Shown here: positions 14,323 through 39,466 of the stretch, piece after piece | Position numbering within the stretch: position 1 is the first letter of the stretch | Layout: each line of letters starts with the position of its first letter | From: Candidatus Nomurabacteria bacterium RIFCSPHIGHO2_01_FULL_36_23 | GTDB taxonomy: Bacteria; Patescibacteriota; Minisyncoccia; Phycocordibacterales; UBA9973 | Assembly (NCBI GenBank): GCA_001786745.1 | Contig: MFTF01000012.1 | Location: forward strand, 1-39,506 | Direction of reading: 5' to 3' | DNA length: 39,506 nt | Notes under the pieces: model-generated | The model's database searches: none | Seen by the model: only the letters and a program-made list of their open reading frames with translations | Told to the model about the DNA's origin: nothing | Position numbers and translations under genes: made by a program

Positions 14323-15558
14323 ATGCGAGAATTTTTAAAAACAAGATATGCTTCTGGCGTTATTTTGCTCACAGCTCTAGTTTTTGTTTTGGGTATTTAT
14401 GTAGGATACAATCAGCGTCCCGAGATAGAAAAAGTTTTTAATCTTTCTGGAAAAGAAACTACAGTTATTACCCAAACTGATTTTTCTCCTTTTTGGAAAG
14501 TCTGGAATACTATTAATGAAAAATATCCCGATGCGAATGAAATAACTGACCAAAATAAAGTTTATGGAGCAATTTCGGGCCTTGTGGATTCATTAAATGA
14601 TCCTTATAGTGTATTTTTTAGTCCGGATGAAACAAAATTATTTGAAGACGAAATAGCTGGTAGTTTCGGTGGGATTGGCATGGAAGTTGATATAAAAGAT
14701 AAAGTGCTCACAGTTGTTGCTCCGCTTAAAAATACTCCCGCTTATCGGGCTGGCATAAAACCGGGAGATAAAATTTTAAAAATTGATAAAATTACCACCC
14801 CTGATTTAAGGATTGAAGAAGCGCTTAAATTAATAAGAGGGGAGAAGGGTACAATTGTCACACTCACTATTCTCCATGATGGAGAAAAAGAATCGAGAGA
14901 AATAAAAATTATTAGAGATATTATAAATGTCCCAACTCTGGATACGGAATTGCGTCCTGATGGAATTTTCGTAATAAAATTTTATAGTTTTTCGGCCAGC
15001 TCCAACTCTTTATTCCGTGATGCCTTAAAGAAATTTGCTCTGGCAAAAACTGACAAATTTCTACTTGATTTAAGGGGTAATCCGGGAGGATATTTAGATA
15101 TAGCTGTTGATATATCAAGCTGGTTTTTACCGGGAGGAAAAATTATTGTAACTGAAGATTATGGAAATAATAAAGAACCGGAGATATTTAGAAGCAAAGA
15201 TTATAATTTATTCAATGATAAATTAAAATTTATAATTTTAATAGACGGCGGGTCCGCTTCGGCATCGGAAATTGTCGCTGGCGCAATGCAGGATTATAAA
15301 CGAGCAATTATAGTGGGTGGCAAAAGCTACGGCAAGGGTTCTGTGCAAGAAGTTGTAAATGTGACTCCAGATACTATTTTAAAAATTACAGTCGCTAAGT
15401 GGTTTACGCCTAATGGAAATTTGATTACTGAAAAAGGATTGACCCCGGATTACATAGTAGAAAATAAAAAACCTGCCCGCAATGCTTTGCCTAGCGATGC
15501 AGGCGGGGATCCACAAATGGATAAAGCCGTAGAATTATTAAATAATTGGCCTCGTTAA
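14323..15558 (+). CDS. ctpA: S41 carboxyl-terminal processing protease with PDZ domain
   Basis: LNDPYS, GGIG, DLRGNPGG, SASASEI, SYGKGSVQ. Confidence 0.95.
   Translation: MREFLKTRYASGVILLTALVFVLGIYVGYNQRPEIEKVFNLSGKETTVITQTDFSPFWKVWNTINEKYPDANEITDQNKVYGAISGLVDSLNDPYSVFFSPDETKLFEDEIAGSFGGIGMEVDIKDKVLTVVAPLKNTPAYRAGIKPGDKILKIDKITTPDLRIEEALKLIRGEKGTIVTLTILHDGEKESREIKIIRDIINVPTLDTELRPDGIFVIKFYSFSASSNSLFRDALKKFALAKTDKFLLDLRGNPGGYLDIAVDISSWFLPGGKIIVTEDYGNNKEPEIFRSKDYNLFNDKLKFIILIDGGSASASEIVAGAMQDYKRAIIVGGKSYGKGSVQEVVNVTPDTILKITVAKWFTPNGNLITEKGLTPDYIVENKKPARNALPSDAGGDPQMDKAVELLNNWPR
15472..15507 (+). repeat. 36-bp palindromic element in frame (PARNALPSDAGG)
   Basis: CCTGCCCGCAATGCTTTGCCTAGCGATGCAGGCGGG; copy 1 of 4. 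Confidence 0.92.
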
Positions 15559-15567
15559 AAAATACAT

Positions 15568-16032
15568 ATGAAAATAATATTTTTACATGATGTGCCAAGA
15601 GTAGGAAAAAAATATGACGTGAAAGAAGTAAATGGCGGTTATGCCATGAACTTTTTATTACCCAGAAAACTGGCCGAACCAGCAACAACGAAGTCCCTAG
15701 CCATGCTTGAAAGACGCAAAAAAGAAATTGCGATTGAAAGGGAAGTGCAGGAAGATCTTTTAATGAAAAATTTGGAAGAAATCAAGGATAAAGTTGTGAC
15801 AATAAAAGTAAAAGCAGATGAAAGGGGTCATTTATTCGCTCAAGTCCATAAAAAAGAAATAATCGATGGCATGAAAAATGAACATCGCGCCGATATCAGT
15901 GAAGAATTTATTATTTTAGAAAAACCAATTAAAACAATAGGGGAGTTTGAAATACCGATTAAGGTGAAAATCGCCGCCGAAGGCGGGGCAAGCAAAAAAT
16001 CTTCTTTTAAACTTGTGGTGGAAAAAATCTAA
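15568..16032 (+). CDS. rplI: 50S ribosomal protein L9
   Basis: [32 protein letters not shown]. Confidence 0.95.
15972..15992 (+). repeat. 21-bp hairpin+GCAAG element in frame in rplI (AAEGGAS)
   Basis: CGCCGCCGAAGGCGGGGCAAG; 16/21 identical to 38660-38680. Confidence 0.65.
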
Positions 16033-16301
16033 AATACATTAACTACTTTTTTGATTACCGTCACGCCGTTGAAAGAAATTTTGCGTTTGGAGCCAAATTT
16101 GACTATACCGGGTTTAAGGGCGAAAAGAGTATGATCTCTCGCTGTAGATACGTTGTTTCCCGCCATAATGACTGTACCGCGTTGACGAACGATAATAGAG
16201 CCAGATTGGGCTTTTTGACCGTCAGCTAGCTTAATACCGAGGTATTTTGGGTTTGAATCTCTTAAGTTTCTGGCGGTTCCGCCGGCCTTTCTATGCGCCA
16301 T
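16029..16301 (-). CDS. rpmA: 50S ribosomal protein L27
   Basis: [30 protein letters not shown]. Confidence 0.97.
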
Positions 16302-16347
16302 ATTGTTTTATATTATATTTATAGGTAGAATCAGTATAATCAATTAT

Positions 16348-38453: not shown

Positions 38454-38462
38454 TACAGACAG

Positions 38463-39089
38463 ATGGATATTATCGATAAATTAACTGAAATTTTTAAAGA
38501 ATTTCCCGGAATTGGAGAACGACAAGCAAGACGTTTTGTCTATTTTTTAATGTCTAGAACTCCTGCCTATAATGAAAATTTAACGGGACTTGTTTCAGAA
38601 TTGAAAAAAGAAATAGCGCAGTGCGGAGAATGTTTTAGATTTTTTATTGTTGGAAAAAACCCCACCAAAGACAGGGCAAGTAAAATCTGTGATATCTGCT
38701 CTAATATCCATACTGATTCTTCTATTTTAATGATCGTTGAAAAAGATTCTGATTTAGAAAGTGTAAAGAAAAGCCGAGTTTATAATGGCAAATATTTTAT
38801 TTTAGGCGGACTCGTGCCGATTGTTGAAAAAAATACTAAAAAAAGAATTCGCATTGAAGAATTAAAAGGAAAAATTAAAAATGATAAGAAGTTAAAAGAA
38901 ATAATTCTAGCTTTTTCCATCAGCCCTCAGGGTGATCATACTGATTCTTATGTTCGAGAACAGATTAAGGACATTGTAGAAAAATTAAAAATAAAAATAT
39001 CTTCTCTTGGTAAAGGTCTCTCCACCGGCACGGAGCTAGAATACTCTGACAACGACACTCTCAAAAATGCGTTAAAAAACAGGCAATAA
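38463..39089 (+). CDS. recR: Recombination protein RecR
   Basis: FPGIGERQARR, C4 zinc finger, YFILGG, G.STGTELEYSD..TL..AL..R. Confidence 0.95.
   Translation: MDIIDKLTEIFKEFPGIGERQARRFVYFLMSRTPAYNENLTGLVSELKKEIAQCGECFRFFIVGKNPTKDRASKICDICSNIHTDSSILMIVEKDSDLESVKKSRVYNGKYFILGGLVPIVEKNTKKRIRIEELKGKIKNDKKLKEIILAFSISPQGDHTDSYVREQIKDIVEKLKIKISSLGKGLSTGTELEYSDNDTLKNALKNRQ
38660..38680 (+). repeat. Decayed 21-bp element in frame in recR (PTKDRAS)
   Basis: CCCCACCAAAGACAGGGCAAG; 16/21 identical to the rplI copy. Confidence 0.55.
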
Positions 39090-39109
39090 GAACCTGTCTT
39101 TTCGGTAGA

Positions 39110-39466
39110 TTATTTTATCGCAGTAATTTTTACCTTGAAAAATGGCTGACGGTGACCGTTGCGACGGAGGTAGCGGGATTTTTGTTTATATTTCACAACT
39201 AAAATTTTTCTAGCACGACCGATTTCCATAATTTCAGCAACAACTTTTGCGCCGGTAATGTAGGGTGTGCCAATAGTGGTATTTTTGCCATTATCAATAA
39301 GCAGAACTTGGTCAAAAGAAAGTTTGTCTCCCTTTTTATACTCCCCCCCGCCTGCACCAGCTGTACTGGAAGCATTGCGGACAGGCTTTATTTTTTCAAT
39401 AGAAAGAAAGCCTCCTTCGGAGACCTTGTATTGTTTTCCACCTGTCTGGATAACTGCAAATTCCAT
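39110..39466 (-). CDS. rplU: 50S ribosomal protein L21
   Basis: FAVIQTGGKQYKV, IGTPYI, GHRQP; start reassigned to MEFAVI. Confidence 0.97.
   Translation of the reverse strand: MEFAVIQTGGKQYKVSEGGFLSIEKIKPVRNASSTAGAGGGEYKKGDKLSFDQVLLIDNGKNTTIGTPYITGAKVVAEIMEIGRARKILVVKYKQKSRYLRRNGHRQPFFKVKITAIK
39347..39385 (-). repeat. 39-bp variant palindromic element in frame (PVRNASSTAGAGG)
   Basis: CCTGTCCGCAATGCTTCCAGTACAGCTGGTGCAGGCGGG; copy 4 of 4. Confidence 0.88.

Follow-up and report, generated by a model that had tools for sequence, protein, structure and literature searches.

A 36-bp hairpin-forming repeat, probably a mobile element, nearly always occupies one reading frame in unrelated proteins of a Nomurabacteria genome

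The 39,506-nt stretch of the tiny groundwater organism Candidatus Nomurabacteria bacterium RIFCSPHIGHO2_01_FULL_36_23 that was analysed here as a whole (contig MFTF01000012.1 of assembly GCA_001786745.1, hereafter the window) carries four copies of a short palindromic repeat within four unrelated protein-coding genes. The repeat is a discrete unit with sharp ends, lodged between codons of the host with no duplication of the target. Some orthologues have it and others lack it; it has entered one loop on independent occasions, has a patchy occurrence in the genus and is found near-unchanged in distant phyla. We consider it likely that the copies belong to a tiny, non-autonomous, hairpin-forming mobile element resembling the REP and RPE repeats, and that selection retains those in a benign frame. 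The copies in the window and their host genes are as follows.

14323-15558, forward strand: CtpA-like host gene (Pfam Peptidase_S41 and PDZ)
15472-15507, forward strand: 36-bp copy in the CtpA-like peptidase, near the C-terminus and past the S41 domain, read as PARNALPSDAGG
24378-24974, reverse strand: scpB host gene (Pfam SMC_ScpB)
24765-24800, reverse strand: 36-bp copy in ScpB, at a beta-hairpin tip, read as PARNASHSDAGG
32162-32776, reverse strand: riboflavin synthase (ribE) host gene (Pfam Lum_binding, two domains)
32378-32413, reverse strand: 36-bp copy in riboflavin synthase, the fully paired A16/T26 variant, read as PARNATHSVAGG
39110-39505, reverse strand: rplU (L21) host gene (Pfam Ribosomal_L21p)
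39347-39385, reverse strand: 39-bp variant CCTGTCCGCAATGCTTCCAGTACAGCTGGTGCAGGCGGG in L21, with termini as in the 36-bp unit, read as PVRNASSTAGAGG

Three of these copies fit the pattern CCTGCCCGCAATGCT-N6-AGCGWTGCAGGCGGG with 0 mismatches each; 100 shuffles of the window that preserved dinucleotides produced no match. The initial annotation had reported four sense copies in one frame at these positions, and this is confirmed by pattern search and translation: all four are in the frame of the host, the first base of the element being codon position 1. The L21 junction reads ...IEKIKPVR / NASSTAGAGGGEYK, in a frame that extends to the window end and whose likely start is MNFMEF. It may be noted that the same annotation saw neither an intergenic copy nor a transposase in the window; a search of the entire window found no additional copy, and none of the six PF01797 matches of the genome is on the contig of the window. 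No tRNA or tmRNA was found in the window.

The unit is 36 bp long, with relatives of 39, 38, 75 and 18 bp, and the termini CCTGCCCGC...GCAGGCGGG are common to all. These 9-nt termini are conserved and imperfectly inverted, and the inner hairpin is variable. A 36-bp palindrome had been claimed; the element is there, but its pairing is imperfect, with T.G at 3/34 and C.A at 7/30 (position i of the 36-mer is taken to pair with position 37-i). The predicted RNA hairpin of the unit has an energy of -19 to -23.5 kcal/mol on the sense strand as opposed to -17.8 to -19.5 kcal/mol on the antisense strand, the former being more stable because T.G pairs turn into C.A on the opposite strand. Two overlapping inner hairpins are backed by compensatory changes (0 of 500 shuffles attain the observed score for each), and position 16 covaries with position 26 as T-A, A-T or G-C. 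The single long hairpin, which is the energy-minimum fold, was rejected as the conserved inner structure, having less covariation than the controls (499 of 500 shuffles score at least as high). Flanks vary among copies apart from a skew at -1 (A or G in 80%) and at +1 (rarely A). Reliable low-GC cases of the 37- and 38-nt relatives are few in the metagenome sample. Copies are mostly dispersed singly, and the few multiples are either adjacent tandems or lie within repeated units of 120, 236 or 297 nt. A CRISPR repeat was ruled out, there being no regularly spaced array with unique spacers, as was a MITE, given the length of 36 bp (vs 70-300 bp) and the lack of a duplication at five junctions compared with empty sites. 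A composite transposon bounded by orphan termini was also sought in the genome of the window and rejected; only chance-like half sites and 18-nt copies devoid of the core were found.

Comparison with orthologues shows that the copies are insertions. The site is empty in 29 of 29 orthologues of L21, 4 of 4 of RibE, 27 of 28 of ScpB and 28 of 29 of CtpA. In L21, 39 nt are cleanly inserted between AAG and GGG, and in ScpB 36 nt between AAT and GAG. As the initial annotation had stated, no target duplication is visible at any of the four sites, and the alignment of orthologues that it had proposed as a check returned clean empty sites. A genome of another species (G015) has a diverged ScpB copy two codons upstream, which represents an independent insertion. 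The ctpA copy is shared by a same-genus genome (G007), where it has substitutions of its own, and in both carriers a 21-nt deletion directly precedes the element. At the riboflavin synthase copy, contigs of other organisms cease to match exactly at 32378 and 32413, and dozens of unrelated contigs per run match the 36 bp alone and diverge at the exact unit ends. Logan contigs of four DNA runs were compared over 19600-39506 for filled and empty alleles; no 36- or 39-nt omission was seen among them, which is a weak test as these contigs break at the repeat. In the structure models, the ScpB insert comprises residues 59-70 at low pLDDT, flanked by strands 52-56 and 71-75, and in L21 residues 33-43 have pLDDT below 50 between strands 23-26 and 51-54. 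The inserts in L21 and ScpB are thus predicted to be disordered loops between beta strands. Many copies lie beyond Pfam domain limits or close to termini. The suggestion that a non-autonomous mini-element is tolerated in loops finds support in the empty sites, the independent ScpB hit, the sharp ends, the patchy spread and the modelled L21 and ScpB loops.

The genome of the window (G000; 556 kb, 35% GC) has 29 loci of the superfamily, 24 of them within ORFs. Of 21 single-unit ORF copies, 20 read PARNA..AGG, and in three compound copies of 75 nt the outer unit is also in the PARN frame, while the B unit nested inside runs antisense to the host genes. Besides the four in the window, the hosts include EF-P, RecA, RpoC, RRF, S5, S9, RNase J, L5, TsaD and SecA, the last with an antisense copy. 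The only 38-nt copy is 3′-terminal in rplE and terminates the ORF with its TAG. Nested and tandem copies exist, and so do intergenic ones, so that the initial observation of no intergenic copy is right for the window but does not extend to the rest of the genome.

The strand and frame bias noted in the window was confirmed by scanning genome-wide and is not random in this genome, in the same genus and order or across phyla. Of 27 loci fetched from genomes of the same genus and order, 22 sit in ORFs as sense phase 0, and the remaining 5 are in short ORFs or spacers. The cross-phylum count was restricted to ORFs of at least 150 aa at loci with GC below 0.48. Among the matches listed, 51 of 76 such low-GC loci are in these ORFs, 44 of the 51 copies are sense phase 0, and 7 are in other frames, with exceptions in both orientations and in phase 2. 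Pooled together, 86 of 94 ORF copies are in the PARNA..AGG frame (binomial p = 1.5e-50 against 0.2), the cross-phylum part being drawn from the matches listed. Real genes of other phyla are read in that frame, too: 9 of 10 tested sense-phase-0 ORFs carry Pfam domains in it; the ten comprise nine from loci with GC of at least 0.5, including Kiritimatiellaeota and Verrucomicrobiae MAGs, and one Bdellovibrionales locus (GC 0.37), and the Pfam-bearing hosts include MurC-like, PheT, GltX and NuoN-like ORFs. Five of the six frames of the element are open, and the sixth, which contains a TAG stop, is never used. The frame in use has a Kyte-Doolittle mean of -1.11, which is among the most hydrophilic, and no Cys. 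One unused antisense frame is lower still (-1.49), but has Cys and bulky charged residues. Two target-preference models for the frame bias were tried, a weight matrix (high-GC flanks) and an 'A|G' rule, giving 13.5% and 32.6% sense phase 0, respectively; they were rejected because the predictions are too low for the observed 91%.

The element also spreads widely. The 36-mer (up to 3 mismatches) is present in 17 of 36 same-genus genomes at 0-11 copies each, and in 1 of 24 genomes belonging to other families. Species genomes, when scanned, yielded at least 118 matching stretches, and the matches listed include Patescibacteria, Verrucomicrobia, Kiritimatiellia, Lentisphaerae, Bdellovibrionales and gammaproteobacterial MAGs. 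Three PVC genomes have 22-46 copies each. As to a viral vector, only two stretches matched in the viral contig collection. Eight sequencing runs cover no less than half of the words sampled from a 9.9-kb stretch; this stretch is found in 13 data sets from 7 studies, with no RNA data among those listed. Synonymous sites do not differ among the copies, which are GC-rich against the 35% GC of the genome. This identity, the GC-richness and the intergenic, nested and tandem copies place the origin of the repeat at the level of DNA and not of the peptide.

We propose that the element would move as a folded single strand through an enzyme acting in trans, for which the obvious candidates are Y1/HUH (RAYT-like) transposases. 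In gene-dense genomes, purifying selection would then leave mostly the insertions that are read in sense from base one. The favoured frame gives Pro-Ala-Arg-Asn-Ala-x-x-Ser-x-Ala-Gly-Gly, which is stop-free, Cys-free and hydrophilic with Pro and Gly-Gly at the ends, and may be tolerated as a surplus surface loop, linker or terminal extension. The absence of target duplication, the PF01797 matches and an orientation bias of intergenic copies are compatible with such a single-strand (HUH) route. The search for a REP-associated transposase proposed in the initial annotation did find candidates, but none could be tied to the element. PF01797 (RAYT-like, Y1/HUH) has six matches in the genome of the window, four of them above the Pfam cut-off, and was matched in 44 of 61 genomes searched. 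In the genome of the window, three of the six PF01797 loci stand between other palindromes and none between copies of the 36-bp element; none of 12 fetched RAYT loci carries it; and the RAYT profile found a RAYT-like ORF within the fetched stretch at 2 of the 118 matches listed. Copies occur in three genomes devoid of any PF01797 match (G013, G064 and G065) and are missing from two genomes rich in RAYTs (G003 and G008). A search of the 60 other genomes gave the RAYT-like ORF beside the EF-P copy just one close orthologue, so that this ORF does not track the element. In a Kiritimatiellia MAG, a copy lies 50 nt past the stop of an IS200-like ORF with none upstream, which chance could explain. 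Three PF01797 loci inspected in five element-rich genomes of other phyla gave no convincing cognate.

The strand bias, and perhaps that of phase, may instead be inherent in the insertion itself. Here the element would enter only one strand with respect to transcription or replication of its target, or would use an RNA intermediate, with selection only trimming the phases. IS200/IS605-type single-strand transposition is biased to the lagging-strand template, and the greater stability of the sense RNA hairpin points in the same direction. Between co-directional genes, intergenic copies share the gene orientation in 11 of 14 independent cases (p = 0.029), in a small sample where some neighbouring loci may be related. 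Also, the commonest variant has an antisense phase-1 frame (RLHRYAKHCGQ) that is open and hydrophilic and yet never used. These two observations imply that selection on the peptide alone may not explain the strand bias. Against a bias of the insertion step stand the 7 exceptions among the 51 low-GC ORF copies listed, the antisense copy of SecA and the antisense B unit of the 75-nt compound, and in these fragmented MAGs gene strand, purine skew and replication direction are inseparable. On balance we regard inherent insertion bias as a rather unlikely account, though one with some weight. Equally tentative is a joint reading in which the hairpin would have been shaped for a harmless Pro...Gly-Gly frame and combined with strand-specific insertion coupled to transcription or replication of the target, an enzyme other than the known RAYTs and spread across phyla; as a whole it is doubtful.

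Of the three causes of the bias that the initial annotation had put forward, selection acting through the peptide is best supported, and we retain it as retention of a benign frame. That the PARNAxxSxAGG peptide is itself selected, for instance as a functional tag, cleavage site or binding motif acquired by different proteins, with the palindrome secondary, is very improbable. The single frame used by 86 of the 94 pooled ORF copies across phyla (partly matches listed) would agree with it, as would the fact that the encoded peptide nearly always opens with Pro and closes with Gly-Gly. Yet the DNA is near-identical down to third codon positions with GC-rich codons in a 35% GC genome, the hosts are unrelated and have orthologues free of the insert, copies may be intergenic, nested, tandem or stop-supplying, and the variation at 16 and 26 obeys base pairing and not amino-acid similarity.

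Removal of the insert before the protein stage, by RNA excision or translational bypass, would make its coding properties irrelevant. Yeast mitochondrial GC-rich inserts are bypassed, and the sense transcript of the element is predicted to fold into a stable hairpin. But such removal would lift the frame constraint, and it is unlikely because the lengths are multiples of 3 (18, 36, 39 and 75 nt), stops are absent from the frame in use and the stop-containing frame is unused; the lone 38-nt copy of this genome closes the ORF of rplE with its TAG. Also an Rfam search at the gathering threshold matched no family in the window. We give this explanation hardly any credence. Most likely the insert is transcribed and, we infer, translated. 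That the copies arose in assembly or binning, for example through chimeric joining at the repeat, has a negligible chance, since even though all sources are MAGs and Logan contigs break at the repeat, identical in-frame junctions recur in independent assemblies and studies, host frames are intact on both sides with flanks orthologous to empty sites, and G007 has the same ctpA copy plus its own substitutions.

Preferring then a mobile element filtered by selection, we compared it with known systems. Protein-coding palindromes have already been published, namely the Rickettsia RPEs and the intragenic REPs (PMC10969869, PMC2229807, PMC3733652). RPEs are described as about 105-150 bp long and Rickettsia-specific (Ogata et al. 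2000, 2002; PMC10969869, PMC2229807). As in these accounts, our element is palindromic and in frame within unrelated conserved functional genes of a reduced genome, with a conserved peptide, intergenic copies as well, and the character of selfish DNA at permissive sites with no transposase identified. Going by the RPE descriptions, it differs in its 36 bp (12 residues), in its 9-nt conserved termini around a variable inner hairpin, and in being common, nearly letter for letter, to Patescibacteria and PVC MAGs. The analogy to RPEs drawn at the outset therefore holds as a kinship of kind, but not as the sole precedent, as short in-frame palindromes were known from the intragenic REPs and RPE-4/6 (PMC3733652).

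Di Nocera et al. (2013, PMC3733652) describe intragenic REPs of the GTAG/CGTC superfamilies, for example in Opitutus terrae, and RPE-4/6 of R. conorii. In that account the repeats are, like ours, GC-rich imperfect palindromes of 20-40 bp with G.T pairs, form subfamilies with compensatory stem changes as well as dimers and clusters, lie in part in known genes (DNA ligase, tRNA synthetases, repair genes), and include families common to distant species, Verrucomicrobia among them. Unlike those REPs, as described, our element has no GTAG/CGTC terminal tag in its flanks and brackets no RAYT, and in low-GC genomes it is mostly intragenic whereas REPs are predominantly extragenic (PMC3733652). Its identity with one of the families of that source, such as those of Opitutus terrae, is conceivable. 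With the REPtron or REPIN-RAYT systems of E. coli and Pseudomonas, which are named in the same source, it shares hairpin repeats and the absence of target duplication. The genome of the window likewise has multiple RAYT-like HUH genes, some bracketed by their own palindromes, but the physical link between RAYT and repeat that marks a REPtron was sought for the element and not found. PARCELs resemble it in coding dyad symmetry, punctate cross-phylum distribution and inferred horizontal transfer; they are, however, 25-residue units arrayed in tandem, in ORFs whose function is unknown and which often encode membrane proteins, as opposed to single 12-residue inserts in housekeeping enzymes. Our literature search found no paper containing CCTGCCCGCAATGC, its complement, PARNASHSDAGG or PARNATHSVAGG, nor, among the papers listed, one linking REP/RAYT-type repeats to Patescibacteria.

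The element is probably a new family of an already known kind of selfish DNA. Protein-coding palindromes, known from Rickettsia and a few REP-rich bacteria, are hereby extended to the ultra-small Patescibacteria, where within a single 556-kb genome they reach into the core information-processing machinery. One 36-mer in the same frame across phyla provides a natural experiment on which loops of universal proteins accept insertions. It also informs how selection filters selfish DNA where intergenic space is scarce and how lineage-specific indels may arise in conserved proteins. For MAG annotation and phylogenomics it carries a warning, as common 12-residue inserts of this kind do not speak for shared descent. 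If the reading of a coding hairpin shaped for a harmless frame were true, the element could colonise essential genes from Patescibacteria to the PVC group and so supply core proteins of several phyla, such as ribosomal proteins, RNA polymerase, RecA and EF-P, with loop insertions.

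The positions that the initial annotation gave for three 36-bp copies of the palindrome and a 39-bp variant proved exact, and Pfam bore out the four hosts:

15472-15507, sense strand of ctpA, 36-bp copy; S41 peptidase with a PDZ domain
24765-24800, sense strand of scpB, 36-bp copy; ScpB
32378-32413, sense strand of ribE, 36-bp copy; riboflavin synthase
39347-39385, sense strand of rplU, 39-bp variant; ribosomal protein L21

The sense orientation and common frame also hold, as all four copies begin at codon base 1 of the coding strand, with predicted peptides PARNALPSDAGG, PARNASHSDAGG, PARNATHSVAGG and PVRNASSTAGAGG. 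A degenerate pattern matched the window three times with 0 mismatches, and no match was found in any of 100 dinucleotide-preserving shuffles. Since the window is only about 35% GC, the element is conspicuous by its composition. Orthologues of each host from up to 40 related genomes were aligned and empty sites were found for all four: the insert is lacking in 29 of 29 L21 orthologues (empty site IEKIK^GEYKKGD), 4 of 4 for RibE, 27 of 28 for ScpB and 28 of 29 for CtpA. Filled and empty sites differ by exactly 36 or 39 nt in the DNA alignments and no target bases are duplicated, as the initial annotation reported. The ctpA copy is common to the related genome G007 and the source genome (G000), along with an adjoining 21-nt deletion. 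In another relative, G015, ScpB has a diverged copy two codons upstream of the G000 site, so the loop was hit twice independently. The L21 site is a permissive loop, since six relatives (rplU loci L033, L034, L038, L040, L045 and L048) have unrelated insertions of 3-15 residues there, which may be decayed older inserts. That the inserts sit in loops is consistent with the AlphaFold models, in which those of L21 and ScpB are predicted as low-confidence coil between strands: in L21, pLDDT is under 50 at residues 33-43, with strands 23-26 and 51-54 on either side, and the ScpB insert (59-70) lies between strands 52-56 and 71-75.

The contigs of four groundwater and soil sequencing runs were compared with window positions 19600-39506. 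Contig depth was about 1000 in both bins with 36-bp copies, whereas most other bins had 20-350. In each run, dozens of contigs match the element alone and diverge at 24765/24800 and 32378/32413, with a flank agreement of 0.37-0.44; as they diverge at the exact element ends, the unit is 36 bp to the base. No empty alleles were seen in the contigs of the four runs, but contigs break at the repeat; the runs listed for the stretch include no RNA. In runs X1 and X10, contigs of other organisms have another hairpin, GC-rich and 37 nt long, inserted at 24782/24783, the precise midpoint of the scpB copy. In GC-rich genomes it is often the element itself that lies in the loop of other hairpins, and 11 of 58 copies there have inverted flanks of 5 bp or more on either side, where shuffles give an expected 2.6. 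Nesting in other hairpins is therefore common, and hairpin apices seem to be preferred insertion targets. A separate feature is the bin 28896-29559, with an unrelated inverted repeat, whose depth equals that of the element bins (in run X1 about 1100, the neighbouring depth being 22-94). The repeat, at 28890-28999 between two minus-strand ORFs, is a perfect 20-nt pair (GCTTTTGAAATACTGCTTTT / AAAAGCAGTATTTCAAAAGC) with a 70-nt spacer; it had no Rfam or tRNA match and may represent a further repeat or else a conserved element that is frequent in the community.

A scan of the whole G000 assembly (556 kb, 25 contigs, the window being contig C12) with patterns for the superfamily, whose members have the termini CCTGCCCGC...GCAGGCGGG in common, gave 29 loci. 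They were classified using Pfam on host frames:

Single units in ORFs, PARN frame (PARNA..AGG), 20 loci
translation: EF-P, S5, L5, S9, RRF
other named: RecA, RNase J, TsaD, RpoC, NusB-NUDIX
"-like", DUF or unnamed: thioredoxin-reductase-like, DUF1573 protein, VirD4-like, PurL-like (two), 244-aa ORF
window: CtpA-like S41 peptidase, ScpB, riboflavin synthase, L21
Antisense single unit, 1 locus: SecA
Ambiguous copy, 1 locus: 5′ end of a nucleotidyltransferase gene
75-nt compounds, 3 loci: histidine kinase, peptide deformylase, 410-aa ORF
Intergenic, 4 loci

The initial annotation saw no intergenic copy, which stands for the window but not for the rest of G000, where the four intergenic loci lie. 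The L5 copy is 38 nt long and provides the stop codon of its ORF, while each 75-nt compound is a PARN-frame 39-nt unit with a second unit nested inside in reversed orientation. For C20:958, of a near-symmetric subfamily, the strand was assigned from the peptide rather than the bases. The NusB and NUDIX domains lie in one 328-aa frame (C18:90039-91022), with the element at residue 27. Core-less 18-nt forms, in which the termini are directly joined, were found in frame in ORFs of 605-1089 aa (C18:23032-23049, C13:5986-6003 and C24:7937-7954), where they read PARAGG, PVRAGG and PASAGG; a reversed-genome control gave 0 matches. These may be deletion remnants or the minimal ancestral palindrome that takes in nested inner hairpins. 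In the window, a GC-rich mini-palindrome, CCTGCCTGCGCGGGTAG, at 17001-17040 resembles the joined termini of the element (3 mismatches to the 18-nt form). Lying in the spacer that follows ORF 16303-16713 and succeeded by a T run, it has the look of a terminator and may derive from the same family.

Of 36 same-genus genomes, 17 contain the element when as many as 3 mismatches are allowed (0-11 copies per genome), as does 1 of 24 genomes from the order's other families. In an exact scan with one genome for each species, at least 118 stretches matched, and the record titles among the matches listed include Nomura-, Sacchari-, Moran-, Roizman-, Davies-, Levy-, Wolfe-, Berkel- and Falkowbacteria as well as Verrucomicrobia, Kiritimatiellia, Lentisphaerae, Bdellovibrionales and uncultured Gammaproteobacteria. 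Three PVC MAGs (2.7-5.1 Mb) have 22-46 copies each, and in a viral contig collection only 2 contigs carry the element. A looser metagenome scan showed more families of 36-39 nt with identical termini and different inner hairpins, mixed with chance matches in GC-rich DNA. One Bdellovibrionales MAG (G065, C52:1952-2444) has two head-to-tail element pairs of 72 nt each, 350 nt apart, both in frame within one 602-aa ORF.

The strand and frame bias reported for the window was checked against random: pooled, 86 of 94 copies are in one frame (p = 1.5e-50 against 0.2). Of 27 loci fetched from related genomes, 22 are in ORFs in sense phase 0 (the PARN frame), and the other 5 lie in short ORFs or spacers, one with a 114-aa antisense ORF between two genes. 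At cross-phylum loci with GC below 0.48, among the matches listed, ORFs of 150 aa or more contain 51 of 76 copies (44 sense phase 0, 4 sense phase 2, 2 antisense phase 0 and 1 antisense phase 2), ORFs of 100-149 aa another 10 and shorter ones 15. The count for GC-rich loci among the matches listed is 16 of 31 long-ORF copies in sense phase 0, ORF calls being unreliable there. Pfam domains were found in that frame for 9 of 10 sense-phase-0 ORFs tested, nine of the ten being at loci with GC of at least 0.5 and one at a Bdellovibrionales locus at GC 0.37. The element has five open frames out of six; sense phase 1 has a TAG stop and is never used, and the used frame has the lowest hydropathy among Cys-free frames. 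Position -1 is a purine in 80% of copies and A is rare at +1; the flanks show no other skew. Sense phase 0 would make up 13.5% under a weight matrix built from GC-rich flanks and 32.6% under an A|G junction rule. Between co-directional genes, 11 copies run with the genes and 3 against (n = 14, one-sided p = 0.029). The count leaves out copies whose neighbours are convergent or divergent or that have a single neighbour, one locus layout that was a duplicate, any second copy in the same repeat unit, and those G000 copies that are coding or ambiguous. The sample is small, and the bias it shows suggests a strand-specific step.

The sense strand folds into a single long hairpin in RNAfold (-19 to -23.5 kcal/mol), which is slightly stabler than that of the antisense strand. 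Across 70 distinct variants, covariation for this single hairpin is below that of shuffled controls (499 of 500 shuffles at least as high). Two overlapping 8-bp inner hairpins with triloops (positions 7-14 with 18-25, and 12-19 with 23-30) are both supported: for each, 0 of 500 shuffles scored as high as the real alignment. These figures are no more than indicative, as the gathering patterns fix many positions and the alignment rows are related. The strongest covarying pair, 16/26, occurs as T-A, A-T and G-C. Three pairing registers exist because GC dinucleotides recur every 5 nt.

The initial annotation also proposed a search for a mobilising transposase, and none cognate to the element was found at RAYT (Y1/HUH transposase) loci, at element loci or in genomes with PF01797 (Y1_Tnp). 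PF01797 matches occur in 44 of 61 genomes searched, with six ORFs of 220-253 aa in G000 (four above the Pfam cut-off), and by inspection the ORFs have a Y.H.NP motif besides an HUH-like LMPNH.H motif. A layout like that of REPtrons (REP plus RAYT) is seen at three of the six, each bracketed or overlapped by palindromes of its own (23-35 nt) from families other than the element:

G000 C6:1994-2509
G000 C2:25351-26093
G000 C22:213-467

Between efp and recA (G000 C2:10345-13288) there is a 245-aa RAYT-like ORF, which has HYHLL and, further on, a motif containing Tyr; each of the two genes has an in-frame superfamily copy no more than 1.5 kb from it. Of the 60 other genomes searched, just one, G024, has a close orthologue, so the ORF does not track the element; the G024 orthologue has two in-frame stops. 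The element was absent from the fetched RAYT loci, and a RAYT-like ORF lay within the fetched stretch at only 2 of 118 element loci among the matches listed; the carriers G013, G064 and G065 had no PF01797 match. In a Kiritimatiellia MAG, an IS200-like ORF has an element copy 50 nt after its stop and none upstream.

In the available text of PMC2229807 and PMC10969869, Rickettsia palindromic elements (RPEs) are roughly 105-150 bp and fused in frame into many Rickettsia genes. REPs, in the available text of PMC3733652, are 20-40 bp with GTAG or CGTC tags, some intragenic (most in Opitutus terrae and R. conorii), and their subfamilies show compensatory stem changes and G.T pairs, some families being common to distant species. 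Unlike the REPs described there, the element is without a GTAG/CGTC tag and a bracketed RAYT. Literature searches gave no match to the element or peptide strings and no published account linking REP/RAYT repeats to Patescibacteria. The element is a real, well-delimited REP/RPE-like mobile hairpin family, and in compact genomes it persists almost only as a sense, phase-0, in-frame insert that is predicted to form a short flexible loop. What is notable in it is the small size, the near-identity across phyla and the 91% use of one frame, and also that it occurs in core proteins of translation, transcription and repair.
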